From Minisyncoccota bacterium (GTDB taxonomy: Bacteria; Patescibacteriota; Minisyncoccia; Phycocordibacterales; UBA9973), in assembly GCA_041664465.1 (NCBI GenBank), contig JBAYKP010000002.1, forward strand, positions 21,190-85,189: a stretch of DNA of 64,000 nucleotides. The letters are read 5' to 3'. This document shows positions 9,900-50,864 of the stretch, in pieces. The notes beneath the pieces are model-generated. The model was given only the letters and a program-made list of their open reading frames with translations, was not told where the DNA came from and made no database searches. The stretch's first letter is position 1. The number at the start of each line of letters is the position of its first letter. The position numbers and the translations under genes were made by a program.

Positions 9900-9931
9900 A
9901 ATGATTTGATTATAACACTATTTATAGTAAC

Positions 9932-11017: not shown

Positions 11018-11233
11018 AATAGGAAGCCTAAATGGGAAAAAGCGGGTGGATGAAATATTTCACCTGCTTTTTTAATTATAGGATGGATGGGTACAGAAAT
11101 TTGACATAAATACGTTCATTTGCTAGTATAAGGGAATTCGGTATTGAGCTGATCTGTGTTTCTCCTTAAGACATTTGTTGATGTTTTAAGAAATGACACA
11201 TGATATCGCCTTATCGGGTAAAGCATTTTATTT

Positions 11234-11419: not shown

Positions 11420-11470
11420 TTTTAATAGCAATTAGGCCATAGGCCTTAGGCACCTAGCAAAAAGCTAAAT

Positions 11471-11497
11471 TCCTAGAGCCTAGAGCCTAAAGCCTAA
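11471..11497 (+). repeat. Tandem heptamer repeat (agcctag/agcctaa x4) immediately upstream of rpsH
   Basis: Read directly from sequence. Confidence 0.6.
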
Positions 11498-11505
11498 ACA
11501 AAACA

Positions 11506-21024: not shown

Positions 21025-21146
21025 AAACACTCCATAAAAACATTCTCAGACTCACCACACAATAAAATTCTGCTGAATTTTTTGCTCGCACTCGGCCCGT
21101 CGGCCTGCGTGAGGGTTCGCTTGAGAACATTTTTTATTTCGTGTTT
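21023..21146 (+). repeat. Palindromic repeat element copy A (about 124 bp, starts inside the map stop codon)
   Basis: About 97% identical to 61522-61644. The core matches 31957-32040 and 48461-48542. Terminal arms aaaaacattctcagactcacc / ggttcgcttgagaacattttt are inverted repeats. Confidence 0.8.
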
Positions 21147-29307: not shown

Positions 29308-31029
29308 ATGAAAAGTGAGACGAAAAACTGCCAGAATTGCAAAAAAGACTTTACTATTGAGCCAGATGATTTTTCTTTTTATGAGAAAATAAAAGTCCCT
29401 CCGCCAACCTTTTGCTCGGAATGTAGAATGATACGAAGGATGATTTGGAGAAATGAGAGGTCTTTTTATCATCGTAATTGTGATTTGTGTGGAGAAAAGA
29501 TAATTTCAGTTTTTGATGATAAAAATTTGAAAATTTATTGCCAGAATTGTTGGCTTAGTGATAAATGGGAATCTTTGGAATATGGAGTAAATTATGATTT
29601 CTCCGCATCATTTTTTTCTCAGTATTCAGGTTTATATAAAAATATACCACTAATAAATTTAAATGGGCATATTTCAAATAAAAACTCACCGTATGTAAAT
29701 TATATTGTTCAGGCTAATAATTGCTATTTTTGTTTTGGTGGAGGATATATAGAAAATGTTATGTTTTCTAATGTTGGGGTAAGAATAAAAGATTCAATGG
29801 AAATATTTTTCTCAATGGATTGTGAATTTTGTTATGAAATATTAAATTGTCAGAAATGTTATCGTATTTATTATGGAAATAATTTGAAAGACTGCATGGA
29901 TAGTTATTTTTTGCAGGACTGCGTGAATTGTAAGGACTGTATCATGTCCTGTAATTTAAGGAATAAATCTTATTGTTTTAAAAATCAACAATTAACTAAA
30001 GAAAAGTTTTTGGTCAAAAAAGAAGAATTTTTAAATAAACTACAGAAAAATATTTATTCTCTTAAAAATGAATTTAAGGAAGTATTGATTAAAAGTCCTA
30101 AAAAATTTGCCAATATTTTGAAATCAGAATTTTCTACAGGTGATAATATCTCTGAAAGTTCACGAGTGGTAAATAGTTTTAATATTTCTAAGAGTGAAAA
30201 TTGTAAAAATTCACAAGATATAGTTGGAGTTGCTCGTGATATCTACGATACAACAAGTGCTGGGTTAGGACTGGAAAATATGTATGAATCAATGTCTGTA
30301 AGTATGAATATTTTGAATTCATTTTTTTCTTTATCAATAAGAAATGATTCTTTTAATATAAATTATTCTTTTGGGTTAACTTCATGTTCCAACTGCTTCG
30401 CCTGCATCGGTCTCCGCTCCAAACAATACTGCATCCTCAACCGCCAATACACCAAAGAAGAATACGAGAGCCTTGTCCCCAAAATCATAAAGCATATGAA
30501 CGACATGCCCTATATAGATAGTAAAGGTAGAATCTACAAATACGGTGAATTCTTCCCAAGTGAACTCTCACCCTTTGCCTACAACGAAACCATAGCCCAA
30601 GAATACTTCCCATTAACAAAGGATGAAGCTCTACAACAAGGCTACAAATGGAAAGACAAGGAAGAACGTAACTACAGTATAGATATACATACAGAAAACA
30701 TCCCAGATTCCATTAAAGACATACCTGATACAGATATCCTAAACAAAGTCATAGAATGTAACCATAAAGGAACCTGTAATCAACAATGTACAGAAGCCTA
30801 TAAGATTATACCCGAAGAACTATCCTTCTACAGACGTATGAATTTACCTCTACCTCGTCTCTGTCCTAACTGTAGACACTATGAACGTCTTTCTCAACGA
30901 AACCCTATGAAATTATGGCATAGAGCCTGTATGAAGCCTGGATGTACCAATGAATTTGAGACATCTTATGCTCCAGAGAGACCGGAGATTGTTTATTGTG
31001 AGAAGTGTTATCAGGGGGAGGTGTATTAA
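29308..31029 (+). CDS. Cysteine-rich paralog 3 (573 aa), same unknown family as 16614 and 18401
   Basis: Same N-terminal, central and C-terminal conserved blocks. Confidence 0.7.
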   Translation: MKSETKNCQNCKKDFTIEPDDFSFYEKIKVPPPTFCSECRMIRRMIWRNERSFYHRNCDLCGEKIISVFDDKNLKIYCQNCWLSDKWESLEYGVNYDFSASFFSQYSGLYKNIPLINLNGHISNKNSPYVNYIVQANNCYFCFGGGYIENVMFSNVGVRIKDSMEIFFSMDCEFCYEILNCQKCYRIYYGNNLKDCMDSYFLQDCVNCKDCIMSCNLRNKSYCFKNQQLTKEKFLVKKEEFLNKLQKNIYSLKNEFKEVLIKSPKKFANILKSEFSTGDNISESSRVVNSFNISKSENCKNSQDIVGVARDIYDTTSAGLGLENMYESMSVSMNILNSFFSLSIRNDSFNINYSFGLTSCSNCFACIGLRSKQYCILNRQYTKEEYESLVPKIIKHMNDMPYIDSKGRIYKYGEFFPSELSPFAYNETIAQEYFPLTKDEALQQGYKWKDKEERNYSIDIHTENIPDSIKDIPDTDILNKVIECNHKGTCNQQCTEAYKIIPEELSFYRRMNLPLPRLCPNCRHYERLSQRNPMKLWHRACMKPGCTNEFETSYAPERPEIVYCEKCYQGEVY

Positions 31030-32489
31030 AATATTACTTTCTTTGCTTCCTCAAATAATTCATCTATTCTTTCTTGAGTTTTTGCTTCACCGAAGAGTTT
31101 AATTATTGGTTCTGTATTTGAAGGACGAAGGTGGAGCCAAGAACTATCCGGTAAGTCTAGGCGTAGGCCATCTTGTTCATCATATGTAGCATCTTTAAAA
31201 TGCTCTTTCAATTTAATGTACATTTGTTTTAGGTCAGAGCCCAATGGCCATTTATCTTTCTTTATTATATATTTTGGCAATTCTTCCATCAGTTCACTTA
31301 TAGTTTTATTTCTCTCTGCCATAAGTTCAAGGATTAAAGCAAGTCCCGTAAAACTATCACGGACTGTATTTATAATAGGGTAGATTATTCCACCATTTCC
31401 TTCACCTCCAACTATTGCATTATGAGCTAGTATTCCTTCTACGACGAATCCTTCGCCAATTTTAGTTCGGAATGTTTCACTTCCATATTTTTTAGCTACA
31501 TCAGCTCCTCTTTGTGAAGTAGAAAGATTAAGCACTATAGGCTTACCTGGATGTTTTGATATCACATTTTCTATTACCAATGCTATAGAATTTTCTTCTG
31601 ACTCCACAATTCCTTTATCACTTACCAATACCAGCCTATCAGCATCAGGATCATGGACGAAGCCTACATCTACTTTTTTTTCAACAACTAATTTTTCTAT
31701 ATCGCCTAGATTCTCACGAAGAGGCTCTGGTCTGTGCCCGAATTTACCATTAGGGATATTGTTTAAGGGATATACTTCTACTCCTAGTTGTTCAAATAAA
31801 TAAGGATCCATCACACAAGCTGAAGCATTGATCATATCAACAGCTACTTTGAATTTCTTAGCACGGATTACTTCTACATTTATATTTTCTAATATTTTAT
31901 CAGCATGTTCTTTGAGAAAGTTTGGTGTAATGTTAGATGGATTTTCGCTCGACTCATTATTCCCGTCAGCACGCGATAAAATTCTACTGAATTTTTCGCT
32001 AGTGCTCGGCTCGACAGCCTGTGCAATGCTTCCTGGAACAATGAGTTCTCGCTCAAATCCATCCCGTTCGAATTTCTTAATTTCTTCTTCATAATATTTA
32101 TTTATCCTTTCTACTTCTTCATTTACAGTGAAAAGAGCTTTATCATTTACAAATTTGAGGCCGTTATATTCTATTGGGTTATGACTTGCGGTAATTATTA
32201 TAGCTCCATCATATCCGTGTTTACGAACAGAGAATAGAACTGTCGGCGTTGGAAGTATATCTCCATATACTGCTTCTACTCCCAGATTTTTTAATTCATT
32301 TAGAATTATTTCTCTTATCTCAGGTCCAGACTCACGACCATCTCTGCCAATTAAAATAGTAGGATGTTCCTTTTTTTCTTTTAAAAATGAAACGAAAGCA
32401 CGCGTATATAAAATAACCACCTCTTTACTAAGTGATTCACCCCAGATACCTCTATATCCAGAGACATTAATTCTTTGTTTAAATTCCAT
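31026..32489 (-). CDS. Phosphohexomutase (phosphoglucosamine mutase / phosphomannomutase family) carrying an in-frame repeat-element insertion
   Basis: GAIIITASHNP (active Ser), DPDADR, GGEGNGG and RPSNTEP motifs. The inserted peptide GSIAQAVEPSTSEKFSRILSRADGN is encoded by the repeat at 31951-32047. The ATG at 32489 is preferred over 32546. Confidence 0.8.
   Translation of the reverse strand: MEFKQRINVSGYRGIWGESLSKEVVILYTRAFVSFLKEKKEHPTILIGRDGRESGPEIREIILNELKNLGVEAVYGDILPTPTVLFSVRKHGYDGAIIITASHNPIEYNGLKFVNDKALFTVNEEVERINKYYEEEIKKFERDGFERELIVPGSIAQAVEPSTSEKFSRILSRADGNNESSENPSNITPNFLKEHADKILENINVEVIRAKKFKVAVDMINASACVMDPYLFEQLGVEVYPLNNIPNGKFGHRPEPLRENLGDIEKLVVEKKVDVGFVHDPDADRLVLVSDKGIVESEENSIALVIENVISKHPGKPIVLNLSTSQRGADVAKKYGSETFRTKIGEGFVVEGILAHNAIVGGEGNGGIIYPIINTVRDSFTGLALILELMAERNKTISELMEELPKYIIKKDKWPLGSDLKQMYIKLKEHFKDATYDEQDGLRLDLPDSSWLHLRPSNTEPIIKLFGEAKTQERIDELFEEAKKVIF
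31951..32047 (+). repeat. Palindromic repeat element copy C, in-frame inside the phosphohexomutase gene
   Basis: The core attcccgtcagcacgcgataaaattct..ctgaatttttcgctagt..ctcgg...gcttcctggaaca is shared with 48461-48542. Flanked by inverted gactcatt / aatgagt. Confidence 0.8.
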
Positions 32490-32526
32490 TCCTTTATAAT
32501 ACCAGTTTTTGAGGAATGAGGGAATA

Positions 32527-32952
32527 TTATTGAAAACTAATTTCAAATGGATACATTCCCATACCGCAGGAGCCGTTTAGGGTGCCGGCTGGTTGTGTAC
32601 TGAGGTCTATATCTGTACTTCCTGATTGTGGGAGACTTTTAAAGATATTCATAGAAGGAATTCTGACAGAAGAAGAGCAATCAAAAGTTCCATTTGTGTT
32701 AAATCTTAAAATTGTAGGAATTCCTGCCTTTGCAATACTTTTCCTTGGTTGGTAACCACCTTTAGCATTTATCTCTATAATTTGTTTACCATCTACTACC
32801 GAAACATTCTTTATAGAAGTTTCTTGTGTTGTTCCAGTACTATTATTACTAGAATCATTTGATTGATTACTTGTTTTTCCACTCGTAAGAACAATAGCAA
32901 ATATAATTAATGCCGCTGATACTACTATTGAGATGATTGTGTTTTTTGTCAT
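32527..32952 (-). CDS. Cupredoxin-like domain membrane-anchored protein
   Basis: C-terminal GSCGMGMYPFEI resembles the cupredoxin-like Y-x-C-x3-H/x-x2-M motif. Paralog of 44140-44499. Confidence 0.45.
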   Translation of the reverse strand: MTKNTIISIVVSAALIIFAIVLTSGKTSNQSNDSSNNSTGTTQETSIKNVSVVDGKQIIEINAKGGYQPRKSIAKAGIPTILRFNTNGTFDCSSSVRIPSMNIFKSLPQSGSTDIDLSTQPAGTLNGSCGMGMYPFEISFQ

Positions 32953-32953: not shown

Positions 32954-34015
32954 TTAAAAATTAAATATTGGCTTTATTAATCCGATTACGACCAAACTAT
33001 TCAATACATTCATTATAGCAAAAAGTATGACGATAAGCCCAGCTGACTTGAAGAAGATGCCAGAGTTTTTATTATTCTTTATACTAAAAGAACTGAAGCT
33101 TATCAAAGCAAGTACAGGAAGAGTCCCTAAAGCAAAAGCAAACATTGTAAGAGCTCCATTCATGAAACTTCCAGTAGAAAGAGTGTATATCTGCATTGAT
33201 TGAGTAAATCCACATGGAAGAAAGAATGTAGCTATGCCAACTAAAATTGGAGTGAGAGAGTGGTTTAATTTGGAAATATTGAAAGCTCTTTTTGATATAA
33301 ACTTTGGCATGCTTAATTGCAGTTTTTTAGTAGAGTGGAATACATCAAGCAAGTTTATACCCATGATAAGCATAACTATGCCTATAAATATTCCTAAGCC
33401 AAACGCTGCTCCAGTATTTAAAGTGAATACACTTCCAAGAGCACCGATAACTCCACCTAATATAAAAAATGAGACGAGCCTACCGAGATGGAAAAGTATT
33501 TGAGGCTTCACCTTATCGCCTTCTTGGGCGAAAGTTGCCGACATTGAGAGGACAAGTCCTCCGACGACGGCCATACAAGTAGAGAGGGAAGCGATAATCC
33601 CGACCACAAAAGCAGTCCCATAAGTAATTTTTGATGTATTTATTAGATTTACCAGTCCAATCTTTTGCAAGATTATAAATAAAGCAATAAATAATAAAGC
33701 CACAGGTATCGCGATTTTAAAATCTGACCAATTTTTGTCTCTTTTTTGTTTTTCAAGTGAGAGAGTATATCCGTGAGGTTTTAAAACAGTTGTTAATTCT
33801 TCTGCTATCTGTTCTATTGTCTTATCTCCGAAATCCCCCTCTATTTCTACGGAAGTATTCTTGAGGCTTGATCTCACGTGTGTTATATAAGGTAATTCCT
33901 TTAATTCACTTTCAGTTAAGAGTACACAAGAATTGCAGTGCATACCATTTACATGAAATTTATATTTTGTTGTTTGATTTTGATTGTTCATATAGTTAGA
34001 TATACAATTTACCAT
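32954..34015 (-). CDS. HMA (heavy-metal-associated) domain fused to a CcdA/DsbD-like polytopic membrane domain
   Basis: N-terminal GMHCNSC motif. TM Cys motifs STC and LPCGFT resemble the CcdA SPC/TPC pattern. Confidence 0.55.
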   Translation of the reverse strand: MVNCISNYMNNQNQTTKYKFHVNGMHCNSCVLLTESELKELPYITHVRSSLKNTSVEIEGDFGDKTIEQIAEELTTVLKPHGYTLSLEKQKRDKNWSDFKIAIPVALLFIALFIILQKIGLVNLINTSKITYGTAFVVGIIASLSTCMAVVGGLVLSMSATFAQEGDKVKPQILFHLGRLVSFFILGGVIGALGSVFTLNTGAAFGLGIFIGIVMLIMGINLLDVFHSTKKLQLSMPKFISKRAFNISKLNHSLTPILVGIATFFLPCGFTQSMQIYTLSTGSFMNGALTMFAFALGTLPVLALISFSSFSIKNNKNSGIFFKSAGLIVILFAIMNVLNSLVVIGLIKPIFNF

Positions 34016-34061
34016 AAAAAAATACCTTTTACAATTAAGTATTTATCTACATAAAATATTA

Positions 34062-34086
34062 TATACCCCCTAGGGGTATATGTCAA
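34062..34086 (-). promoter_or_regulatory. CsoR-type operator palindrome (tatacccc-cta-ggggtata) lying between ttgaca (-35) and an AT-rich -10 on the minus strand
   Basis: Near-identical palindromes at 34782-34806 and 44792-44818. Resembles the published Bacillus CsoR operator (TACCC...GGGGTA). Confidence 0.6.
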
Positions 34087-34088
34087 TA

Positions 34089-34472
34089 TTATTTTACATT
34101 ATTAATAATGTTTTGAATAATTTGGTCAATTTCTTTTGGCCTCTCACCTAAATCTGCTTGTGGGAAGAATTGTGACAGAATAATTGGTCGCATACCAGAA
34201 ATAAAAGTTTGTCCGTCTTTGTTATAAACATTTATTTTGCACGGCAAGCAGAGTCCGATTTTAATGTCTTTTTCTAAAAATTCATTAGCAAACTTGGCAC
34301 TACAAAATTCAATAATTTTAAATGATTCTCGTTCAAATCCTTTTTCGCCTAAAGTTTTTTGTACGTCATGAATATACAAAACACGCATGAGAGCTTTGGC
34401 GATTTCATCCTCCACACTTTTGACTACGTCATCAAAAGTTTTAGTTGTAGTTACTGTATAATCAAATTCCAT
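34089..34472 (-). CDS. DUF302-family protein
   Basis: Conserved GLCLPCKINVY segment typical of DUF302. Confidence 0.55.
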   Translation of the reverse strand: MEFDYTVTTTKTFDDVVKSVEDEIAKALMRVLYIHDVQKTLGEKGFERESFKIIEFCSAKFANEFLEKDIKIGLCLPCKINVYNKDGQTFISGMRPIILSQFFPQADLGERPKEIDQIIQNIINNVK

Positions 34473-34497
34473 AAATTTTTATATATTAAACTAATAA

Positions 34498-34722
34498 TTA
34501 AGCACTTAAATCCTTTTTCTTTTCTTCAAATTCTTTTTTATCTATTTCACCTTTAGCGTATCTTTCTTCTAAGGTATGAAGAGATTTCTTGCTATCCATT
34601 ACATTTGTTTTATTGTTGCTGATAAGCCAAATAATAAAATAAATAATTGCTCCCCAAAACAAAATCATCATAATTCCACCTCCAAACCAACCACCCCATC
34701 CATTATATATTCCATACATCAT
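34498..34722 (-). CDS. SHOCT-domain small membrane protein
   Basis: Gly-rich TM N-terminus plus C-terminal [22 protein letters not shown] (SHOCT-like). Confidence 0.5.
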
Positions 34723-34781
34723 ATAATTTACTTTTGTTTATTTTTATAATAAATACAGTCCGACAAACTTATATAATATTA

Positions 34782-34806
34782 TATACCCCTAGGGGGTATG
34801 TGTCAA
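34782..34806 (-). promoter_or_regulatory. CsoR-type operator palindrome (tatacccc-ta-gggggtat) + ttgaca -35 upstream of the SHOCT/DUF302 pair
   Basis: As for 34062. Confidence 0.6.
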
Positions 34807-34869
34807 CGATATCAATAAACAAGAAAACTACTTCATATGAAGTAGTTTTCTTGTTTATGAATCTCTCTA

Positions 34870-35568
34870 TTATAATTTTTCTATTTTTTGTATAAGCATA
34901 TCATTTGCTATGGCCATATTGGGGTCATCAAATACATATCTGACTATTCCTTCTTTATCTATAACTATATAGGTATGCCCTGGAAGAGAACCTCTATGCA
35001 TTGAAGAAGCAGTAGTTAAGAGACCTAATTGTTTAGATGTGTTTGCATTGATATCAAACATCGTCATTGTTTTTGCGAGTTCTGGCATTTGGTCTATTGC
35101 TTTCTGCCAATCTTTGGCAGGGTCAACTACGACAGAAATAGCTTGAGTTTTATCGTTATTGAATCTCGCATCACTTCCAAAGGCTGACATTTGATTCCAG
35201 CAAGCTGGATAGCACATAAGTCCTTCATTGAAGAACAAGACTATATTTTTACCTTTTAAATCAGCAGGTGTATATATTTTTCCATCTTTATCAGATAATG
35301 AGATTGCAGGCATAGTTTTCCCCACAAGAGAATTTAATAATGTATTGTCCGTCGCTATCGATGCACCACCATGATCGTGTGGATTAGGAGTTGTGTTACT
35401 ATTGTTAACACTAGTTTGAGGATTAGTTTTTGGTCCTTGGGAAGGGTTTTTTATTAGGAAGTATCCTAAAAATAATATTACAATTGAAAGTATTACAATT
35501 GAAAATACAAGTGGTTTATTATTTTGATTATTCATGTTTTTTGTTTTTATTTTGATTAATGAACACAT
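34870..35568 (-). CDS. Membrane-anchored thioredoxin-fold thiol:disulfide oxidoreductase (TlpA/redoxin-like)
   Basis: Active-site-like CYPAC within IVLFFNEGLMCYPACWNQ. Confidence 0.55.
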   Translation of the reverse strand: MCSLIKIKTKNMNNQNNKPLVFSIVILSIVILFLGYFLIKNPSQGPKTNPQTSVNNSNTTPNPHDHGGASIATDNTLLNSLVGKTMPAISLSDKDGKIYTPADLKGKNIVLFFNEGLMCYPACWNQMSAFGSDARFNNDKTQAISVVVDPAKDWQKAIDQMPELAKTMTMFDINANTSKQLGLLTTASSMHRGSLPGHTYIVIDKEGIVRYVFDDPNMAIANDMLIQKIEKL

Positions 35569-36388
35569 ACGATATGAGTATTATTATTCCGACGAATAAT
35601 AATGCCCATATGTATTCAGGGATTACTTTTATAAATCCACTGATAGATTTTAAGAATTTAGCATTGTATAAATTCATATCTAATTGATAATCTGAGTGAA
35701 CAAACAATTTATCTTTAAAAGCTAAATATGTAATATAGCTTCCCATTAAGAAAAATATAAGTCCAGAGATTAATTCAGAAACAGAAATTTTCCAGCTGAA
35801 ACTACCAATTCTCATACCAATACTTCTCTTAGCATTAGTAAACTTTTCTGCTAGGTTTACTTTATCCAAGAAGGCTGCAATGATGAATAACGGCAAGGTC
35901 ATCCCTAGGACATATGCGAGTGTATATAAGACACCCCAGACTATTGTACCGCTTGTTAGTGATAGAGTTAGAACTCCTGCTAAAACTGGAGCACAACAAG
36001 TAGTTGCAATCGCTGAGAAAATACCGAGAACATAGATAGAAGAGACGTGCCTTCTCATTCCATCTCGAAGAGAAACTGGTCGAGCAAACTTTTTACCCAA
36101 AAGCATTATTATTCCTAATATTATTAAGAATATTCCACCTACAGTAAAGATTACATTATGATATTTACTGAAAAGTTGTGCTAAGGCAGAGAATCCTAAA
36201 CCGATTGGAACAAAGACAGTTGCTACTCCTAGGAAAAATATAAAAGTCATAAAAAAGATTTTATATTTTTCTCTAAAGATATTTCCCAAATAAGAGGGGA
36301 GTAGAACTGTAATGCAACAGGGAGCAAAGAGTGCTGCGACTCCAGCCACAAAGGCTGCTACTAACGATATTCCGACTAATGATTCCAT
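35528..36388 (-). CDS. CcdA/DsbD-like polytopic membrane protein with paired Cys motifs
   Basis: FAPCCITVLLP and ATTCCAPVLAGV in TM segments. Confidence 0.5.
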   Translation of the reverse strand: MESLVGISLVAAFVAGVAALFAPCCITVLLPSYLGNIFREKYKIFFMTFIFFLGVATVFVPIGLGFSALAQLFSKYHNVIFTVGGIFLIILGIIMLLGKKFARPVSLRDGMRRHVSSIYVLGIFSAIATTCCAPVLAGVLTLSLTSGTIVWGVLYTLAYVLGMTLPLFIIAAFLDKVNLAEKFTNAKRSIGMRIGSFSWKISVSELISGLIFFLMGSYITYLAFKDKLFVHSDYQLDMNLYNAKFLKSISGFIKVIPEYIWALLFVGIIILISYVFINQNKNKKHE

Positions 36389-37026
36389 ATATTTTTTTCT
36401 TTAAAATTAGGAATAAATGCAGGGACTTTTTCTTTGTATTTTATATATTCTTCACCAAATTCTTTTTCCATCTCCCTTTCTTCTTTATAAGAAAGACGTG
36501 TATACATAAAAACTAAAATAGGGAACATTGCTAATGTTAGTATTGTTGGCCATTGCAAAAGAAATCCAACCATTATCATTATAAAACCAACATACTGAGG
36601 ATGTCGGGTATATTTGTATATTCCATTTACAGCGAGAGTATGCTCTTTTTGTGCTTTATATAAAACTTGCCAAGCCTTGGCTATAATTATAAAACCAATA
36701 ATAATAAATACACTACTTAAAGTATGTATTATATTAAAATGCGGATCTCCTTTTAATCCCAATAGAGTTTCCCATAAATGTCCATTATTATGGCTAAGCC
36801 AATCTACATTAGGAAAATATTTTATTAATGTTCCAGAGAAAAAATAAATAGTTAGAGGGAATCCGTACATTTCTGTGAAAAGAGCTACTATGAAAGCAGA
36901 AAACGCTCCAAATGATCGCCAGTCTCTTTTTGTTTTAGGATGAGTAAAACTAAAAGCAAAGACAATAAATATTGTTGTTTCTAATAATACTAATCCCCAT
37001 AATCCATAACCTGATGTTGTTGTCAT
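36376..37026 (-). CDS. Isoprenylcysteine carboxyl methyltransferase-family (ICMT/PEMT-like) membrane methyltransferase
   Basis: RHPQYVG motif. 216 aa, polytopic. Confidence 0.6.
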   Translation of the reverse strand: MTTTSGYGLWGLVLLETTIFIVFAFSFTHPKTKRDWRSFGAFSAFIVALFTEMYGFPLTIYFFSGTLIKYFPNVDWLSHNNGHLWETLLGLKGDPHFNIIHTLSSVFIIIGFIIIAKAWQVLYKAQKEHTLAVNGIYKYTRHPQYVGFIMIMVGFLLQWPTILTLAMFPILVFMYTRLSYKEEREMEKEFGEEYIKYKEKVPAFIPNFKEKNIWNH

Positions 37027-37041
37027 AATGTTTTTATATTA

Positions 37042-37518
37042 TTAATTAAGTTGCCAAATAAAACTCCTTACGGTCTCTTTAATTCCAGAAATTTTTAATT
37101 CAATAGATTTAGGATTAGGATTTATCGCCTCAAACACTAAAACCCCTTCTCTATGGTGTCCACCGGCTTCTGCCCCTTCCCAACGTAATGGTGTATAAAC
37201 TTTTCCTTGATTATCTACTAAAACAGTATTTTTTATTAAATCTTGATCAAGCTCGATTTCGTGATTATTCATTACTATCTCAAATCTCCATTCTTTTGAT
37301 TGTGAAGAGACATCTACTGGGGTGATAGTGACAGTCACAGCCAATTGTTCGTCGGTTTTAGATTCCAATGTTATCTTTGGGGAATTATTTGTATTTACGA
37401 AGGAGTCATTTTTTAAGACTGGATGATTTATTTTTTTATTATCAAAAACAACAAACATCAAGATTCCTGTAATTATAAATAATATTATTAGAATTATAGT
37501 TAGTTTTTTAGATTTCAT
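37042..37518 (-). CDS. Membrane-anchored hypothetical protein
   Basis: N-terminal TM segment. No recognised domain. Confidence 0.4.
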   Translation of the reverse strand: MKSKKLTIILIILFIITGILMFVVFDNKKINHPVLKNDSFVNTNNSPKITLESKTDEQLAVTVTITPVDVSSQSKEWRFEIVMNNHEIELDQDLIKNTVLVDNQGKVYTPLRWEGAEAGGHHREGVLVFEAINPNPKSIELKISGIKETVRSFIWQLN

Positions 37519-37964
37519 ATGTTTGTTTTTTTAATTTTAATTATTTTATTACTTATAAATATAATACCGAATATATTAAATAGAATTCCTACCCAAAAGA
37601 TTTCAGTTTGATATTTTGTGATGAACATAAGGGAACCCGAGATGCCGAGAATCGGTATTATATTGGTCAAGTAATGAGCACAACACGAAACCATTGCTAA
37701 AGTAGAAGTCGTACCTGTCACAGCCACAGCCTTGCCATCTATAGTAATATGTTTATTCTTAACAAGTTCTTTTAGATAAGAATATAATCCTATCTGAATT
37801 CCAAAACCTACCGTTAAGCTGACAATAAAATACCAATAACTTGCAAACTGCTTTTCTGCAAAAACCCAACCTGACACAAACGTTAATACTGCAAAATAAA
37901 CTCCAAGCAAAATTATGCTTGCAAGTGTTCCATATAGAATTGATTTTTTAATACTACGAGCCAT
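37515..37964 (-). CDS. Polytopic membrane hypothetical protein (contains CC pair)
   Basis: Hydrophobicity. VSCCAHY segment. Confidence 0.4.
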   Translation of the reverse strand: MARSIKKSILYGTLASIILLGVYFAVLTFVSGWVFAEKQFASYWYFIVSLTVGFGIQIGLYSYLKELVKNKHITIDGKAVAVTGTTSTLAMVSCCAHYLTNIIPILGISGSLMFITKYQTEIFWVGILFNIFGIIFISNKIIKIKKTNI

Positions 37965-37998
37965 ACTTATTTAATGACAACTATTACTTGAATTATTT

Positions 37999-38256
37999 TT
38001 AACTTTTTTCTTTATCTCCCTCTCTTCCTTTTAATACCTCAGTTTCTTCACTGGAATTTTTATGAGATTTTCTCATCATAAATAGATGAAATATAACCAT
38101 TACTCCTATCCCAATAAAAATAATCCATTTTGAATTTCCAGAATTACCAGCACTACTTCCTACTCCAAAAATTAAAAGAAGAACAATAGGTAGGGCACAG
38201 CAAATCATCATCATCCACATCATTCCTTTTCCATTTTTATCGTCGTGATTATGCAT
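37999..38256 (-). CDS. Small Met/His/Cys-rich membrane protein (possible metal-binding)
   Basis: MHNHDD ... MMWMMMICC composition. Confidence 0.4.
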   Translation of the reverse strand: MHNHDDKNGKGMMWMMMICCALPIVLLLIFGVGSSAGNSGNSKWIIFIGIGVMVIFHLFMMRKSHKNSSEETEVLKGREGDKEKS

Positions 38257-38294
38257 ATTATTTTTTTTATTTAATTTTTAATTTTCAACCTCTT

Positions 38295-38462
38295 TTAATG
38301 ACAACAACTTCCAGAATGTTCTGGTTTCGATGCTTCCTGTTTTTTATATTCTTCTTTGCAATTTTCTGAACAAAACTTTTTACTAGATTCTTCAGGATAG
38401 ACTTTTTCTTTTTGTAATTCCATTTTACAAACGGGGCATTTTTCTTTAAATAGATTGAACAT
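38295..38462 (-). CDS. Small TRASH/YHS-like zinc-ribbon metal-binding protein ending in SCCH
   Basis: CPVC-x18-CSENC spacing close to the TRASH pattern C-x2-C-x19-22-C-x3-C. The ORF-track N-terminal extension to 38582 overlaps the neighbouring gene and is rejected. Confidence 0.4.
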   Translation of the reverse strand: MFNLFKEKCPVCKMELQKEKVYPEESSKKFCSENCKEEYKKQEASKPEHSGSCCH

Positions 38463-38515
38463 AAAATTTAATAAATTATTTTTTAATATCGACCAATCAT
38501 TAATTATATAAGACT

Positions 38516-39547
38516 TTATACCCCGCACCCTTGTTGTTTTTGTTGTTGCGGAGCTTGAGCAGGTGCTCCTCCGACATCGCATCCACCTCCTTTTTGTTGC
38601 GTACTTTCAGGCTGTGTAACTTGTGTTTTTATATTTGCAAATCCTTGGCTACTTGAATAATCTGCCCCAAGTATTTCTTGTGCATTTATATTTTTCCATT
38701 CTACCCCCTTACTCTTCATGTAAGTTGCTATTGTTACATATGTATCAGGGAACCAGTATGAATTGACAGTTAAGGCTGTGCTCCACATCTCTTGTTCACT
38801 TGCACCTTGTGAAGCCATTAATTCTAATAGTCCAAGCATTGCCATTCCGTGGTTGCAATCAGGAAAATGAACTGAGTTTCCACAGCAAGGTCTATATATA
38901 CCACGAGATACTTTGTCTACAAGAGCTTGTTGCTCTGGTGTTAAGTTAAAGAATACGTGTTTACTGTAGTGATCCATTGCTCCACCTTTGGCAATAGTCC
39001 AACCTCCAGTTGAAGCAAAGTTTCCTGCTCCACCATATTTAGGATCCATCATTTCTCCTTTCTCTAATATTTCATTCTTATTAGCCAAGCCAAGTGCCCA
39101 GAATAGATTGAGTAAATATCCCGAATTTTCATTGGTTATTTTTATTTTACCGTTACCTATTCCTTCAAGTAATCTTTTATCTTCATCTGTTAATTGACCT
39201 CTATCTTTATAGAGAGCTTTGAATTTGTCTGCATCGATTGCTCCAGATTCAGTCAACTTTACTCCAAGGTCTCCCCATTTAACATTTAGTGTTACTCCTT
39301 TAGCAGGAATTACTTTTTGTTCTAGGGCGGATACTTGGACTTCTTCTTTGGTTGATGAAGGGGTGCCTTTATTTGTTGCATAGACTAAAGATCCCCCGAT
39401 AATAATGGCCGCTAATAATATACTCCCAGGTAGTATATAATTTTTTTCTTTTTTATCAGAAATTATTTCTTCTTTTGGAAGTTCTTCTAATATTATTATT
39501 TCTTCTTCTTTCAATTCTTCAACTTCATTATTTTCTTCGTTTTTCAT
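38516..39547 (-). CDS. Membrane-anchored hypothetical protein with a Cys/His cluster (RPCCGNSVHFPDCNHGMAM)
   Basis: TM anchor after an acidic N-terminus. No family recognised. Confidence 0.4.
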   Translation of the reverse strand: MKNEENNEVEELKEEEIIILEELPKEEIISDKKEKNYILPGSILLAAIIIGGSLVYATNKGTPSSTKEEVQVSALEQKVIPAKGVTLNVKWGDLGVKLTESGAIDADKFKALYKDRGQLTDEDKRLLEGIGNGKIKITNENSGYLLNLFWALGLANKNEILEKGEMMDPKYGGAGNFASTGGWTIAKGGAMDHYSKHVFFNLTPEQQALVDKVSRGIYRPCCGNSVHFPDCNHGMAMLGLLELMASQGASEQEMWSTALTVNSYWFPDTYVTIATYMKSKGVEWKNINAQEILGADYSSSQGFANIKTQVTQPESTQQKGGGCDVGGAPAQAPQQQKQQGCGV

Positions 39548-39549
39548 AA

Positions 39550-40044
39550 TTATTCATTACAGCAATTAGCGAGTTTACTAATGATATCTTCTAGGTTTGA
39601 ACTCGTTTTTGCGGTATCTTTTATTAATTGACCATCTATTAATTTTAACTTTAGAGCCCAAAAGATTGAATATACTTTATAAGCTCTTTCAAACATCTTC
39701 TTTGCTTCATCTTTTTTATTTTCAGATTGAAACTTATTTCCGACCTCTATAAGCCTCATTGTGGAGGAAAGTAAATGTTTTGATATGCACCATGTTTCCC
39801 CTTCGTGATTTGGCATTAATTCTTTCAGTAATTCTTTTCTTAAGCTTCTTATTTCTTCTGCTGTGTCAAAATATTCATCTTTTTTAATTTTTACCCCTGT
39901 GAAGAAGAAGTGTTCTTCTAGACTGATTAAATTCATAACTGCTAAACTTAAATCCTCCGTGGTAGAAAGATCTACCCCTGCTTTATCTTTAAGCGATTCT
40001 ATTTTCTCAAGGAATTCATTTAGTGTTGGTATTGTTTTTTCCAT
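39550..40044 (-). CDS. Hypothetical cytoplasmic protein
   Basis: ORF with protein-like composition in an operon context. Confidence 0.35.
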   Translation of the reverse strand: MEKTIPTLNEFLEKIESLKDKAGVDLSTTEDLSLAVMNLISLEEHFFFTGVKIKKDEYFDTAEEIRSLRKELLKELMPNHEGETWCISKHLLSSTMRLIEVGNKFQSENKKDEAKKMFERAYKVYSIFWALKLKLIDGQLIKDTAKTSSNLEDIISKLANCCNE

Positions 40045-40048
40045 AAAT

Positions 40049-40828
40049 TTATATAAAGAAGATTAAGATACCGATAATAATCATTGCGAGACCAGCCCAG
40101 AATTTAAACCCTTTCATATTTGTCTTTTTCCATTCCGAAACCTTATCCACCATAGTTCTATTAGCTGTTACAAAGAGAACGGCAACTAAAGGCACAATAA
40201 GAATTAGATTGTAAAGCATTAAATAGCTTGAACCCATTAAGTATGTTACTTGATCTTTTAGAAGCCCTATGACCATCAAGTACGGGCCACCCATACAAGG
40301 GAACTGGCATATACCTACTAAGAGCCCAAGACCGAATGCTGCAGGAAATGAAGCCTTTTCCATTAGGCGACCCATAGCCGTATGAGAGATAGACGGAATT
40401 TTAAACTTGATAGGAAACTTCGGAAACAACTGACTTAAAATATTTATTAATCCAAATATAATAAGTAGTGATGCTCCAAGTTTACCCATGAAGTGGGGAG
40501 TGTTGAAGAGGTGTAGGACTTTTAGAATCCCTAAGCCAATCAGTAAATAAGCGACAAAGATTCCGGCGATATATGTGCCACCTATTTGAAGAATTTTCTT
40601 TCTAGTTAATTGCATCCCAAATAGGAAAGCGATTGTAATTAGAAGAATTGAGAACGAGCAAGGGTGCACACTATCAAGCAATGCCGCGACTAATACAAGT
40701 GGTAGAAGCCAAGTACCACTATTGCTTAAATTCCATATGAATGCAGCCGTACCCGTGCTCTGTTTCAAGAACACTATTCCTAAAATAGCGATGATTAAAA
40801 CAATTGATATTATTATTATTTTTTTCAT
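40049..40828 (-). CDS. CcdA/DsbD-family thiol:disulfide transporter
   Basis: SVHPCSF and QFPCMGGPY motifs (CcdA-like xPC ... xPCxGP). Confidence 0.6.
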   Translation of the reverse strand: MKKIIIISIVLIIAILGIVFLKQSTGTAAFIWNLSNSGTWLLPLVLVAALLDSVHPCSFSILLITIAFLFGMQLTRKKILQIGGTYIAGIFVAYLLIGLGILKVLHLFNTPHFMGKLGASLLIIFGLINILSQLFPKFPIKFKIPSISHTAMGRLMEKASFPAAFGLGLLVGICQFPCMGGPYLMVIGLLKDQVTYLMGSSYLMLYNLILIVPLVAVLFVTANRTMVDKVSEWKKTNMKGFKFWAGLAMIIIGILIFFI

Positions 40829-40834
40829 AAGTAT

Positions 40835-41359
40835 TTAAGGTGTTACTGTTGCTTTAATTTCAATACTAATATCTTTACCATTTTCATCAACCAGTGTGAT
40901 AAACCTATCTATAAATCCTACACCAGCGGGGCCATGAGCATTAGGATCATAAACAACTTCTAGATTGCTAGTACCCCTTGCTTTTATAGTTTCATTGGCA
41001 GGAGGGAGATATCCATGACCTGACATTCCAAATGGTCCTTTTTTAGTACCATCAGGGCTAATAATGAATGCATTAGTACACATACAAGAAGTAGAGACAG
41101 AAGAAAGAAGAATATCTTTATCTGTAGGGTTTGTAATGGTGAAATTTTTAGTTACATTTCCATCTTTCATAGAAATCGTACCAAAATTATAAACACTTTC
41201 TGATGTCGTTAGAGCACTTTGTTCCCCTGTACTTTGTACTGGAGCTTTTTGATTTTTACTACCCCACCATATAAGGCCTATGATGGCTAAAATAATAAGG
41301 AGGGTAATTGTAATAGTTTTTTTCATTTTATTTAAGTTTAATTTAATTAATAAAAACAC
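40835..41359 (-). CDS. DUF1573-like secreted or membrane-anchored protein
   Basis: STSCMCT resembles the DUF1573 SCGCT signature. N-terminal TM anchor. Confidence 0.4.
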   Translation of the reverse strand: MFLLIKLNLNKMKKTITITLLIILAIIGLIWWGSKNQKAPVQSTGEQSALTTSESVYNFGTISMKDGNVTKNFTITNPTDKDILLSSVSTSCMCTNAFIISPDGTKKGPFGMSGHGYLPPANETIKARGTSNLEVVYDPNAHGPAGVGFIDRFITLVDENGKDISIEIKATVTP

Positions 41360-41425
41360 AAGAAAAAAGCCTTGCGGTTTTTATTTATCAAAAATGACCA
41401 AACTGAAATTGATAAACCCGCAAAA

Positions 41426-41869
41426 CTATATATTTGCTAGTTTGTATTTTTTTGTATTAAGAATTCCACTAGAGAAAATTTCTCCTAGATAATTGAAAAG
41501 ATTTATTTGTGGATGTTCTTTTATATAAAGTTTAAATTTAAGATAAATTTGCCGAGAATATAGAGATAAATAATTTCTTGCAAAAACAAATATTACAAAT
41601 AGTAATACAAATGATACAAGGGAGCTTGTTGTGTTAAGAATATTTTGGGGCATTAAAGTGAACATTTCGTTCCAAACAGTGACATGCTCAGAGAAGTTCA
41701 TAGCACACCCATTATTTTCACTACCCAAAAGACAACTATTTTTAGCTCCTTCAAATTTCATTCCATTCATATGATAAACAAGCCCCAAAGTACTAATCCA
41801 CAATAAAGAAACTATGCTTATTATAAGCATTATTTTCCCGAATTTTTTATTGTTTAATGTGGAATTCAT
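41426..41869 (-). CDS. Hypothetical membrane protein
   Basis: Hydrophobic segments only. Confidence 0.35.
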   Translation of the reverse strand: MNSTLNNKKFGKIMLIISIVSLLWISTLGLVYHMNGMKFEGAKNSCLLGSENNGCAMNFSEHVTVWNEMFTLMPQNILNTTSSLVSFVLLFVIFVFARNYLSLYSRQIYLKFKLYIKEHPQINLFNYLGEIFSSGILNTKKYKLANI

Positions 41870-41900: not shown

Positions 41901-44135
41901 TTAAACTATATTTTTTTTCTTAAGCCAAAGTGAATTTCCGACGACGGAAATAGAACTCGTTGCCATCGCTACTGATGCGAAAATAGGATTGAGGAGGATG
42001 TGGAAAAGAGGGTAGAGAGCTCCCATAGCTACGGGGATTAATATAACATTATATCCGAATGCCCAGAAAAGATTTTGGCGGATAGTTCGCATAGTTTTCT
42101 TGGATAAGACAATCGCTGCCGCAACGGACCTCAAATCTTTATTGATAAGAGTAATATCAGCGGCTTCTATCGCTACATCAGTTCCACTCCCCATTGCAAT
42201 CCCTACGTCAGCAGCAGCGAGAGCAGGGGCGTCATTGATACCATCTCCTACCATTGCTACAACTTTACCTTCTGCTTGTATTTTTCGTACCTCTTTTTCT
42301 TTTTGATCAGGGAGAACTTCTGCAAGGATTCTAGCAATGCCTAACTTTTGACCTATTGCATTGGCAGTTCTTTGATTATCTCCTGTGATCATTACAGTCT
42401 CAATGCCAAGCTTTTGCAATGCTATTAATCCTTCACGAGCACTTTCTTTTATGATATCAGCAACAGCAATGAATCCAATAAGTTTATTTTCTCGCCCTAT
42501 CATCATCACAGTCTTACCATTGTTTTCCATTTCGGTTATTCCACTAAGAGCACTACTTATATCAATGCCTTCTTTGTCCATCAATCTCTTATTACCGAAA
42601 ACAATTCTTTTACCATCTATAAAGCCTTCAACTCCGTGTCCAGGAATTGCTTGGAATTTTTCTACTTTTATTAGTATGAGTTTTTCTTCTTCTGCTTTTT
42701 TTACAATTGCTTCTGCAAGAGAATGCTCGGAACCTTTCTCTATAGAACCCGCAAGTTTTAATAGCTCGTCACTAGATATTGTTTTATCTATTGAAACAAT
42801 GTCTGTAACTTCTGGTTCTCCTTTTGTGAGAGTTCCTGTCTTATCAAAAATAATTGTATTGATTTTATGAGCTATTTCTAGACTCTCAGCATCTTTTATA
42901 AGGATACCGTGCTCTGCACCTTTACCTGTACCTACCATAATTGCCGTCGGAGTAGCGAGGCCCATAGCGCAAGGACAAGCAATTATAAGAACAGCAACAG
43001 TGTTTAATATTGCAAATAATAAAGTAGGTGCAGGCCCAAATATATACCAGATTGCGAAAGTAAGTATAGCAAGCATTATTACAACTGGTACGAAATATGA
43101 AGATACTAAATCAGCCAAGCGCTGGATAGGTGCTTTACTTCCTTGGGCTTCTTGAACCAGTTTTATGATCTGAGCGAGCATTGTCTCGCCTCCTATTTTT
43201 GTAGCTTTGAAAGTGAAAGTGCCGGTTTTGTTCATTGTTGCGCCTACGACTACGTCGCCTTTTGTCTTATCTGTGGGGATACTTTCCCCCGTAATCATAG
43301 ATTCATCGATAGAAGATTCTCCTTCTATAATAATTCCATCTACAGGAATTTTCTCGCCTGGTCTTACTCGTATAATATCTCCAATGATTACTTCACTTAT
43401 AGGTAAGTCTATCTCTTTCCCGTCGCGCATTACACGAGCAGTCTTGGCTTGAAGTCCGATAAGCTTTTTAATAGCTTCCGAAGTTCCAGCTTTAGCCTTT
43501 GCTTCAAAATAGCGCCCTAATAATATAAGACCAATGATAATTACTGTCGTATCAAAATAAGGCATTGGCTCAATGCCTATCTTTTGTACAAGATGAGGGA
43601 ACAAAATTACAAAAACAGAATACGCATATGCGACAGTTGTACCTATGACTACGAGTGTATCCATGTTTGCAGTCCTGTGCTTGATAGCTGAGAGAGCAGC
43701 ACGGTAGAAAGTAAAGCCAGCCCAGAATTGTACGGGAGTAGCGAGGATGAATTGAACCCAGAAATTTCTCAAAATCATAGGTGAAGTTTCCATAAGTCCT
43801 GGGAAAGCTCCCCATAAAATCAAAGCTCCTAGACCAAGACTTATTATAACTTTAGTGCGTAAACTACGAAGATCTTTTAATTTTTCTTTTTGTTCCTCAT
43901 CTTCTGTTTTTACTTCTTCGTCTAAAAGGGCAATGTATCCGACGTTAGAAATAGCACTAGATAGCTTTTCATCTGTTACTTTACTTGGATCGTATGTTAC
44001 TGTCGCTTTCTCTGTCGCTAAGTTTACTATGGCACTAGAAATACCATCTACTTTTTTAAGTGAGCCTTCTATTATTGCCACGCATGAAGCGCAATGTATT
44101 CCTTTTATTGCAAATGTTTTTTTATTTTGTTCCAT
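41901..44135 (-). CDS. copA: Copper-translocating P1B-type ATPase
   Basis: N-terminal HMA GIHCASC, TM CPC motif ([10 protein letters not shown]), DKTGTLT phosphorylation site and [10 protein letters not shown]. Confidence 0.92.
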
Positions 44136-44139: not shown

Positions 44140-44499
44140 TTATTTTACTATTATTTTCCCGTGATACATGCCCATACCACAAGTGTATGTAAATTCACCA
44201 CTCTTAACAGGGGATAGGTCTATCTCGACTTTCTGATTAAGTGGTAGTTGTTTGCGAATTTTAAAATCTCCTAGAACTATTTCTTCTAGACATGCAGTTG
44301 GATCCTTGCGAATAAAAGTAAGCTTGGTTGTTTTGCCTTTTGGTATTGATATAACTTCTGGGGTATATCCACCATCCACAATGATATCTACAGAGCCTGA
44401 GACTTCTACTTCCTTATCTTTCTTACCAAGAAAAAACCAATAGGTGAAACCTATTCCCAAAATACTTATTACTATAACCATTATTTGATCTATATTCAT
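44140..44499 (-). CDS. Cupredoxin-like domain protein
   Basis: [16 protein letters not shown] matches the cupredoxin-like Y-x-C-x3-H-x2-M-x-G-K-I-V signature. Sits immediately upstream of copA. Confidence 0.55.
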
Positions 44500-44517: not shown

Positions 44518-44781
44518 TTATTTTCTCTTAAGCCCATAAACTTTTAATATTTCCTCCGTGGCCTTTTTGGTTTGCCCTTTTTGTATTTGGTGTACTAGAC
44601 AGGTACCTAGGTGACCTTCCATTAGGGCATCTTCCACTCCTGAGAGAGCTTGCTTCACGGCGGAGGTCTGGGTGATGATATCAATGCAGTAAATTCCTTT
44701 CTCGACCATCTCTTGTAAGCCTCGTACTTGCCCTTCAATAATTTTCAAACGCTTTATTAGTTTTTGATTATTTGTATTCAT
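44518..44781 (-). CDS. csoR: CsoR/RcnR-family metal-sensing transcriptional repressor
   Basis: RLKIIEGQVRGLQEMVE...C.D ... H...C pattern. 87 aa from the ATG at 44781. The 179-aa ORF-track version has a non-conserved extension overlapping smpB. Confidence 0.8.
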   Translation of the reverse strand: MNTNNQKLIKRLKIIEGQVRGLQEMVEKGIYCIDIITQTSAVKQALSGVEDALMEGHLGTCLVHQIQKGQTKKATEEILKVYGLKRK

Positions 44782-44791
44782 ATAAAACATC

Positions 44792-44818
44792 TTATACCCT
44801 AGGGGGGTATAAGTCAAG
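44792..44818 (-). promoter_or_regulatory. CsoR-type operator palindrome (ttataccc-ta-ggggggtataa) + ttgac on the gene strand, 11 nt upstream of the csoR ATG
   Basis: Same palindrome as at 34062 and 34782. Sits in the -35/-10 spacer position. Confidence 0.65.
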
Positions 44819-47785: not shown

Positions 47786-47858
47786 CCGCACTTAGCTCAG
47801 TTGGTAGAGCAATCCGCTTATACCGGATCGGTCCTAGGTTCAAGTCCTAGAGTGCGGA
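47786..47858 (+). tRNA. tRNA, anticodon TAT by manual fold (tRNA-Ile UAU)
   Basis: Manual cloverleaf: acceptor ccgcact/agtgcgg, D arm agctcagttggtagagc, anticodon stem atccg/cggat with loop cttatac, T arm ctagg-ttcaagt-cctag, discriminator A. No encoded CCA. Confidence 0.65.
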
Positions 47859-47863
47859 CAATT

Positions 47864-50774: not shown

Positions 50775-50864
50775 GGATGAGTGGCCGAGAGGCTTAAGGC
50801 AGCGGTTTACTAAACCGCCGTTCTGTAAAAAGAACCGTGAGTTCGAATCTCACCTCATCCGCCA
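50775..50864 (+). tRNA. Class II (long-variable-arm) tRNA with encoded CCA and an atypical anticodon loop (ttactaa; canonical reading gives anticodon ACT)
   Basis: Acceptor ggatgag/ctcatcc, discriminator G, CCA encoded, T arm gtgag-ttcgaat-ctcac, anticodon stem gcggt/accgc. Identity unresolved. Confidence 0.5.

Follow-up and report, generated by a model that had tools for sequence, protein, structure and literature searches.

The 64,000-nucleotide window analysed here (positions 21,190 to 85,189 of the 110-kb contig JBAYKP010000002.1) comes from a groundwater metagenome-assembled genome (MAG) of "Candidatus Paceibacterota", a small genome whose deposited annotation offers generic gene names only. 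It contains three minus-strand promoters that each enclose a CsoR-type palindrome, and the genes behind them probably form one copper-responsive regulon. The first promoter, P1 (44789-44817; TTGACT-TATACCCCCCTAGGGTA-TAAGAT, read from 44817 to 44789), precedes the regulator gene csoR; its -35 hexamer TTGACT lies at 44817-44812, its operator ATACCCCCCTAGGGTAT at 44810-44794 and its -10 hexamer TAAGAT at 44794-44789. P2 (34778-34806; TTGACA-CATACCCCCTAGGGGTA-TATAAT, read from 34806 to 34778), with operator ATACCCCCTAGGGGTAT at 34799-34783 in the spacer, precedes the genes of a SHOCT membrane protein and a DUF302 protein. P3 (34058-34086; TTGACA-TATACCCCTAGGGGGTA-TATAAT, read from 34086 to 34058), with operator ATACCCCTAGGGGGTAT at 34079-34063 in the spacer, begins 3 nt past the stop codon of the DUF302 gene and precedes the genes of an HMA-DsbD_2 fusion protein and a cupredoxin. 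The initial annotation of this DNA had noticed two of these sites, at 34062-34086 and 34782-34806, as a -35 element joined to a palindrome, and the minus-strand sequence agrees with it in both coordinates and reading. It had also called them nearly identical to the csoR site, TTGACA included; near-identity holds, the one slip being the -35 of csoR, which is TTGACT rather than TTGACA, and the -10 of csoR is weaker as well.

The frame ATACCC-N5-GGGTAT (i.e., TAC-N9-GTA) is constant in P1, P2 and P3, and the central CTAG shifts by one base among the three boxes (C6/G3, C5/G4 and C4/G5). Each operator occupies the 17-bp spacer of its promoter, its final T being the first base of the -10 hexamer. 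A perfect TTGACA-N17-TATAAT occurs only twice in the 64 kb, at P2 and P3, against 0.04 expected from shuffled sequences, and a consensus scan of 30.5-45.5 kb returned the same two as its only sigma-70-type promoters scoring 12/12; P1 is weaker, with a hexamer score of 9/12. With at most two mismatches, ATACCCCNNNGGGGTAT matches three sites in the window against 0.07 expected, and the combined -35 and palindrome pattern TTGACNNATACCCNNNNNGGGTATA, required to be exact, matches the same three (P1, P2 and P3) against 0.01 expected. These three motif counts exclude a chance origin of the boxes. Relaxed scans revealed no further CsoR box in the window, and none was found in the 10 kb upstream of it. 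A long duplicated cassette behind P2 and P3 was considered and rejected: their identity ends ~3 nt beyond the 29-bp core promoter and, therefore, their likeness reflects function rather than a long repeat.

The csoR gene (44518-44781, minus strand) encodes an 87-aa protein of the CsoR/RcnR family (Trns_repr_metal, PF02583, 2e-25, 89.4 bits against a cutoff of 22.8 bits) and heads a contiguous run on the minus strand. The second gene of this operon (44140-44499, minus strand) encodes a membrane-anchored Cupredoxin_1 protein with a CGMGMY motif (PF13473, 4.8e-22), and the third is copA (41901-44135, minus strand), a P1B-type ATPase with an N-terminal HMA domain (PF00122, PF00702 and PF00403), which NCBI names a heavy metal translocating P-type ATPase. 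When the window CsoR is aligned with three CsoR structures (4M1P, 4ADZ and 2HH7), its Cys32, His57 and Cys61 coincide with their Cys/His/Cys Cu(I) ligand positions, i.e., the x-C-H-C fingerprint, and Tyr31 directly precedes Cys32. It is the only PF02583 gene of the window, and no second one was found in the window or the 10 kb upstream (~74 kb altogether). The csoR mRNA is probably leaderless, since its ATG lies only 7 nt past the -10 of P1; no Shine-Dalgarno sequence is present at 44779-44794, and the distance from -10 to ATG is likewise 6-7 nt in seven related loci with a regulator of the same class (class A, see below; L132, L137, L139, L140, L157, L163 and L187). The gene upstream of P1 is smpB, which is divergent, and no co-directional gene lies upstream.

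The palindromes correspond to the type-2 CsoR operator, for which the streptomycete consensus is ATATACCCCTNAGGGGTATAT, with positions 3-8 and 14-19 most conserved (PMC3902906). The same study reports that the TAC-N9-GTA dyad is common to the S. lividans, S. aureus, L. monocytogenes and B. subtilis sites and that CsoR binds with two tetramers per operator, binding being lost with Cu(I) or upon mutation of the TAC/GTA dyad (PMC3902906). P1, P2 and P3 all show the type-2 arrangement, with TAC-N9-GTA around G/C tracts and ATACCC/GGGTAT around N5, and the core of P2, TACCCCCTAGGGGTA, is a 15-mer identical to the operator core of copZA1 and copZA2 of S. lividans. A scan of 185,579 species genomes with TTGACNNATACCCNNNNNGGGTATA gave at least 120 loci, mostly from Clostridia, with further ones in Actinomycetota, Pseudomonadota and several Patescibacteria; the figures below concern the matches listed, in which the window proteins were compared with all open reading frames (ORFs). 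In 108 of the 120 listed sites, the start of a CsoR or CopA homologue lies no more than 700 nt downstream, in the direction of the promoter, and 109 of the 120 have at least four of the six -10 bases at a spacer of 17; their consensus is CTTGACAaATACCCC..gGGGGTATATaAT. Among the 12 listed sites without csoR or copA, several precede genes for DUF4396, ArsP_1, DUF6153, DUF1573 or DUF302, and only ~3 look unrelated. The occurrence of the palindrome at many unrelated loci, which the initial annotation had named as the result that would overturn its reading, was, therefore, not observed. The N5-only pattern misses class A sites with an 18-nt box (C5TAG5), and the regions upstream of csoR were read directly instead.

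It could be argued that these palindromes are RNA hairpins or intrinsic terminators rather than protein operators. A permissive scan does flag the P1 and P3 palindromes as terminator-like, P3 directly follows the DUF302 stop codon, and a palindrome whose arms equal those of the CsoR box is a real terminator elsewhere in the window. This element (ATACCCCC-AAAC-GGGGGTAT, then T5; 9593-9612, bidirectional) is situated after the rplE stop codon, facing a convergent minus-strand gene, and forms a hairpin of -16.4 kcal/mol with a 4-nt loop. Its TAC-N12-GTA spacing, its T-run, its position at the end of rplE and its lack of -35 and -10 hexamers led us to reject it as a fourth operator and bear out its initial description as a plain terminator. 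A second, stronger terminator hairpin follows the redoxin gene upstream of P2 (34812-34856, minus strand; 18-bp stem, -23.5 kcal/mol, T-rich tail) and is predicted to insulate P2 from upstream read-through. The three boxes, however, fold at only -9.4 to -11.9 kcal/mol (-9.4 kcal/mol for P2, just behind this far stronger hairpin) and lack a U-run, whereas they sit exactly in the 17-bp spacers of consensus promoters. Moreover, P1 has no co-directional gene to terminate, only P3 follows a stop codon, and the listed sites elsewhere overwhelmingly precede csoR or copA. For P1 and P2 we, therefore, reject the terminator reading on fold energies, tails and gene context, and as an explanation of the boxes in general we consider it highly improbable; it survives as a possible second role of P3. 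In that role, which would add to operator function rather than replace it, P3 would also act as a weak terminator or as a repressor roadblock for read-through from P2, so that the P2 and P3 units would be independent under repression and partly linked under induction. The position of the box 3 nt past the DUF302 stop is compatible with this, as are its hairpin of -11.8 kcal/mol, followed by AAUAUUUUAU, and the conservation of its placement after DUF302 in three relatives (L167, L170 and L173). However, the hairpin is weaker than the real terminators of the window and its tail is not a U-run, and we regard such a second role as rather unlikely.

The units downstream of P2 and P3 are, according to Pfam, composed as initially described, i.e., SHOCT with DUF302 and HMA-DsbD_2 with a cupredoxin. 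The SHOCT protein (34498-34722, minus strand; 74 aa) scores 31.6 bits with PF09851 against a cutoff of 27 bits; it has an N-terminus rich in Gly and Trp, a single transmembrane segment and its SHOCT domain at the C-terminus. The DUF302 protein (34089-34472, minus strand; 127 aa; PF03625, 6.3e-17, 61.7 bits against a cutoff of 23 bits) is related to the structures PDB 1Q9U (5e-10) and 1J3M, both of uncharacterised proteins. Cys57 and Cys78 are present in all of 65 close homologues and Cys75 in 64 of them (forming a Cys75-Leu-Pro-Cys78 motif); since Cys75 is missing from both solved structures, this CLPC motif is clade-specific. Behind P3 lies the HMA-DsbD_2 membrane fusion (32954-34015, minus strand; PF13386, 6.5e-34; PF00403, 6.2e-9), which probably starts at its second ATG, at 33991 rather than 34015, because the close relatives do not have the 34015 ATG and begin at the position that matches 33991. 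Approximately 60 nt of 5' untranslated region after P3 are partly conserved in close relatives. The next gene encodes a second membrane-anchored Cupredoxin_1 protein with a CGMGMY motif (32527-32952, minus strand; PF13473, 6.2e-8), which in relatives is always found behind HMA-DsbD_2. No NCBIfam functional names are available for DUF302, SHOCT, the cupredoxins or the unnamed genes of the cluster.

The initial annotation had also placed a mutase gene in the P3 unit. This gene (31026-32546, minus strand; PGM/PMM family, Pfam) is only an uncertain member: no terminator occurs in the ~38-nt gap between cupredoxin and mutase, which is consistent with its inclusion, but the corresponding place in relatives holds no mutase. 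It is possibly co-transcribed from P3. The mutase gene also harbours one of four minus-strand copies of a structured repeat of ~70-95 nt (31950-32045, 48453-48548, 21030-21135 and 61528-61634). Two copies lie in frame within unrelated genes (those of the PGM/PMM mutase and of a RecG-like helicase) and two are intergenic; the peptide encoded in the mutase, ...PSTSEKFSRILSRADGN..., is the same as that in the helicase. Folding energies of the two copies within genes are -39.7 and -43.1 kcal/mol (z = -6.2 and -6.8), and paired changes distinguish the stems of different copies. The repeat has no Rfam match and no copy in the 206 loci compared; it resembles in-frame palindromic elements (of the type found in Rickettsia, i.e., Rickettsia palindromic element-like) or a miniature inverted-repeat transposable element.

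Do these target genes keep the company of copper genes elsewhere? A metagenome scan with the DUF302 protein yielded 335 relatives, of which the best 80 loci, largely from groundwater, were used; the protein shows unusual conservation over many distinct groundwater contigs among these, with 76-88% identity. A CsoR-family gene or CopA lies on the same strand within 5 kb in 41 of 66 non-redundant close DUF302 loci, and in 15 of the 19 loci with at least 3 kb available on both sides one or the other is found near DUF302; a SHOCT gene lies within 1.5 kb of DUF302 in 27 of the 66. The arrangements behind the box vary. In a parcubacterial locus (L015) it precedes CsoR-CopA-HMA_DsbD2 (5e-139)-cupredoxin, in an Erysipelotrichaceae locus (L056) CopA-CsoR-HMA_DsbD2, and in a Zambryskibacteria locus (L007) CsoR-CopA-SHOCT with DUF1573-p259-p343 further down; elsewhere it is followed by DUF1573-p259 (L120), by CsoR-DUF302-CopA (L187, L189), by CsoR-CopA-SHOCT-DUF302 (L140, L163) or by SHOCT-regulator-DUF302-DsbD-redoxin-CopA (L146, the regulator of which is x-C-H-H and not x-C-H-C). 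In the closest relatives (L167, L170 and L173; HMA_DsbD2 7e-189), an orthologous P3 separates DUF302 from HMA-DsbD_2; it reads TTGACTTATACCCCATAGGGGTATATAAT, with conserved arms and a different centre. In these loci DUF302 is the last gene of a long run led by copA. Compared with these, the window has extra genes between p343 and DUF302, and SHOCT-DUF302 has a promoter of its own.

Taken together, we consider it likely that P2 and P3 are held off by the CsoR encoded at 44518-44781, which would also autoregulate P1, and that Cu(I) switches on all three units. Copper regulation in this genome is, at the level of sequence, well supported, and the co-regulation initially proposed gains from the type-2 operator match, from the position of the listed sites at csoR and copA, from the Cu(I) ligands of the sole nearby PF02583 gene and from the relatives that place the targets in csoR-copA operons. 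In the proposed mechanism, apo-CsoR would sit on the spacer-filling box overlapping the -10 and block RNA polymerase; since the operator takes up the whole spacer and its last T belongs to the -10, neither hexamer should be accessible to the polymerase while the repressor is bound. If the protein resembles the characterised CsoRs, two tetramers would occupy each operator. Cu(I) bound at Cys32/His57/Cys61 would then release the repressor, inducing together csoR-cupredoxin-copA (possibly with downstream genes), SHOCT-DUF302 and HMA-DsbD_2-cupredoxin (possibly with the mutase). The weak P1 (9/12) would yield a leaderless csoR message, and P2 and P3 (12/12) would be silent when repressed and very active when released, giving a large on/off ratio. 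The sequences, their statistical rarity, the domains of the genes, the ligand fingerprint and the association of box and genes across genomes are what the analysis shows; repressor binding, stoichiometry, inducer and transcript boundaries are what we infer in this scheme.

Several observations weigh against this interpretation. Genome coverage amounts to ~74 kb, i.e., the 64-kb window plus 10 kb of extra contig. The alpha-1 helix of the window CsoR reads R11-L12-K13-I14 (RLKI) against RLXR in S. lividans, with the second Arg replaced, and that Arg is essential in S. lividans CsoR (PMC3902906); RLKI or RLKIL is also found in class A relatives that retain the operator. Approximately one third of the close DUF302 loci of the Candidate Phyla Radiation (CPR) have no copper genes nearby, and among the relatives a class A box directly before a separate SHOCT-DUF302 unit occurs in none except L146. 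The operator core, finally, is used by other sensors. Three classes of regulator occur in the related loci: class A with x-C-H-C, like the window, class C with x-C-H-H, and class B, an x-C-H-H paralogue. Class C regulators use the ATACCCCCTAGGGGTAT palindrome (L194/L195, at 4692 and 8497; L174, L159 and L146). The S. mitis cst operator of CstR, ATATACCCTTATGGGGTATAT, has the ATACCC-N5-GGGTAT core (PMC8643695), and the L205 box resembles a cst-type operator with the same core. As CstR, x-C-H-H and CsoR sites have this core in common, the operator is not specific in sequence for a Cu(I) sensor over CstR or the paralogues, and DNA alone does not name the sensor. Accordingly, the attribution to "the single CsoR" in the initial annotation agrees with the sole PF02583 gene in ~74 kb but is an inference only.

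These observations bring in a competing explanation, namely that a CsoR-family paralogue whose gene lies beyond the window (CstR-like or x-C-H-H) acts at P2 and perhaps at P3, and that SHOCT-DUF302 answers reactive sulfur or another metal instead of copper. Besides the shared operator core, eight CPR relatives (L122, L154, L171, L178, L179, L191, L193 and L197) have a dedicated class B paralogue (x-C-H-H, N-terminus MVDQ...) directly upstream of SHOCT-DUF302. In L078, from Uhrbacteria, DUF302 and a C..C (CstR-like) regulator come after the box. On a Secundilactobacillus plasmid (NZ_CP042372.1) a similar box precedes genes for a rhodanese, an FAD oxidoreductase, another rhodanese and an x-C-N-C regulator, and SHOCT-SHOCT-DUF302 follows downstream of these rhodanese/CoA-persulfide-reductase-like genes and the regulator, on the same strand, after an insert. 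Other DUF302 loci, including some close CPR loci without copper genes, are flanked or preceded by rhodanese-, DsrE- or ArsR-type genes. However, P2 is practically identical to P3, which drives the HMA/cupredoxin genes that elsewhere belong to csoR-copA operons, and all boxes of the window resemble the CsoR sites of S. lividans in the long unbroken C/G tracts that surround CTAG, whereas the cst-type boxes of S. mitis and L205 are AT-rich in the middle (the CstR-like box of L078 is not). The class B paralogue uses a different, non-palindromic box in the promoter spacer, TTGACA(A/T)ATAGGG..T.GGGGTATA, and this box (ATAGGG...GGGGTAT) is absent from the window, as is any second PF02583 gene from the 74 kb. 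The Y-position His on which the allosteric response depends is missing from CstR (PMC8643695), whereas the window CsoR has His57 and so differs from the regulator of a cst-like operon, and Pfam revealed no rhodanese, metallo-beta-lactamase (MBL)-fold dioxygenase or CoA-persulfide-reductase domains in 31-45 kb. We, therefore, judge control by such a paralogue improbable and favour the CsoR of the window. The L194 locus suggests that a non-canonical ligand set (x-C-H-H) can run a copper-type regulon, because identical boxes there precede a regulator-SHOCT-DUF302 unit and copA.

The role of SHOCT and DUF302 may be broader than copper. The initial suggestion that they are copper-stress effectors holds in so far as they are regulated here like copper-stress genes, but it may be too narrow in view of their sulfur-related and CstR-like company elsewhere. 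A Cytobacillus plasmid carries DUF302 among ArsR/SmtB, MBL-fold, rhodanese, TusA, DsrE and TauE genes, Arthrobacter plasmids are reported to combine a DUF302 gene with a CsoR-family regulator in sulfur modules (PMC6305408), and silver induces a SHOCT membrane protein in Haloferax (PMC10694973). Since CstR-like and x-C-H-H regulators as well as sulfur genes also accompany SHOCT-DUF302, the pair probably represents a thiol or soft-metal stress module rather than a copper-specific one. Its sensor is of the Cu(I) type in the window; sister lineages use an x-C-H-H paralogue whose box is non-palindromic, and Uhrbacteria and Lactobacillales have CstR-like regulators. More speculatively, SHOCT-DUF302 could be a portable two-gene thiol/soft-metal module that plugs into any CsoR-family sensor, and a single Cu(I)-type CsoR would here, by way of two perfect promoter-operator cassettes, have captured both this module and HMA-DsbD_2/cupredoxin, fusing copper and reactive-sulfur defences into one regulon. 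We put this forward as a tentative idea, with more doubt than conviction; if true, DUF302, which has the invariant Cys57 and the clade-specific CLPC, would handle Cu(I) or persulfide in the cytosol.

Between copA and P2 lie 13 further minus-strand genes (34870-41869; Pfam), the order of which is conserved in L125, L137, L139, L170 and others. They include p147, DUF1573, the p259 permease, p164, p343, a small zinc-finger-like protein, p85, p149, a DUF5643-like protein, ICMT/PEMT, DsbD_TM and redoxin, are mostly uncharacterised membrane or thiol-redox genes, and travel with csoR/copA in many CPR contigs. No CsoR box precedes them in the window; the DUF1573-p259(-p343) group has its own in L120, L154 and L197. 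A horizontally acquired island was considered for this region and finds no support, because the GC content of 31-45 kb (0.31-0.39) is like that of the rest of the window. Elsewhere in the window, the string of ribosomal-protein genes is broken twice, at 2151-6110 between rplB and rpsS by a diacylglycerol kinase gene and four minus-strand genes of pyrimidine synthesis, and at 9678-11500 between rplE and rpsH by two minus-strand genes and a small membrane ORF. ARAGORN (50775-50864, 47786-47859) reports a tRNA-Ser ACT beside an opposite-strand tRNA-Ser(GCT), and also a tRNA-Ile TAT.

Apart from its RLKI motif, the system of the window belongs, by every sequence-level test run, to the CsoR/type-2-operator systems, and the type of switch is already known, as CsoR operators in core promoters and a three-operator regulon have been described, the latter in S. 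lividans. The S. lividans CsoR regulon (PMC3902906) likewise has three type-2 operators, one of them autoregulatory, TAC-N9-GTA with G/C tracts, an x-C-H-C sensor and the 15-mer shared between copZA1/copZA2 and P2. The window differs from it in its targets, which are SHOCT-DUF302 and HMA-DsbD_2-cupredoxin rather than copZA duplicates, in operators that fill the spacer of perfect consensus promoters, in its leaderless csoR, in RLKI instead of RLXR, and in its host, a Patescibacteria MAG. The csoR-copZA regulons of Bacillota (B. subtilis, L. monocytogenes, S. aureus and the clostridial loci) also have -35/ATACCC-N5-GGGTAT/-10 upstream of csoR-copA. Such regulons are usually a single operon, and no DUF302 or SHOCT homologue was found downstream at E<1e-4 among ~100 listed Bacillota loci. 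With the cst-like operons of CstR (S. aureus, E. faecalis and S. mitis; PMC8643695) the window shares the repressor fold and the ATACCC-N5-GGGTAT core, and the regulator...SHOCT-SHOCT-DUF302 arrangement of NZ_CP042372.1 matches the accessory module of P2; unlike these operons, it has His57, no persulfide enzymes in the cluster and a regulator joined to the copA operon. The class B box of the CPR relatives, which controls SHOCT-DUF302, is like an RcnR type-1 site, but the class B protein lacks the N-terminal His3 of RcnR, and its box does not occur in the window. In the "type 1" operators of RcnR, one G-tract lies between the arms of an AT-rich inverted repeat.

The novelty lies in the target set, with the DUF302 and SHOCT families, and in the host phylum. 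In the literature searched, no paper ties DUF302 or SHOCT to Cu(I)-CsoR control, treats CsoR in Patescibacteria or combines SHOCT with DUF302; CsoR with DUF302, or DUF302/SHOCT with copper, receives passing mentions, the closest being a plasmid survey with both in one sulfur module (PMC6305408). The locus thus offers a testable regulatory context for the widespread, uncharacterised DUF302 and SHOCT families and for the HMA-DsbD_2/Cupredoxin_1 pair, and the repeated pairing of SHOCT-DUF302 with three types of CsoR-family sensor is a lead on its function. For the organism, it would mean that an ultra-small Patescibacteria genome with few regulators devotes ~14 kb and three CsoR-gated promoters to copper or thiol stress.

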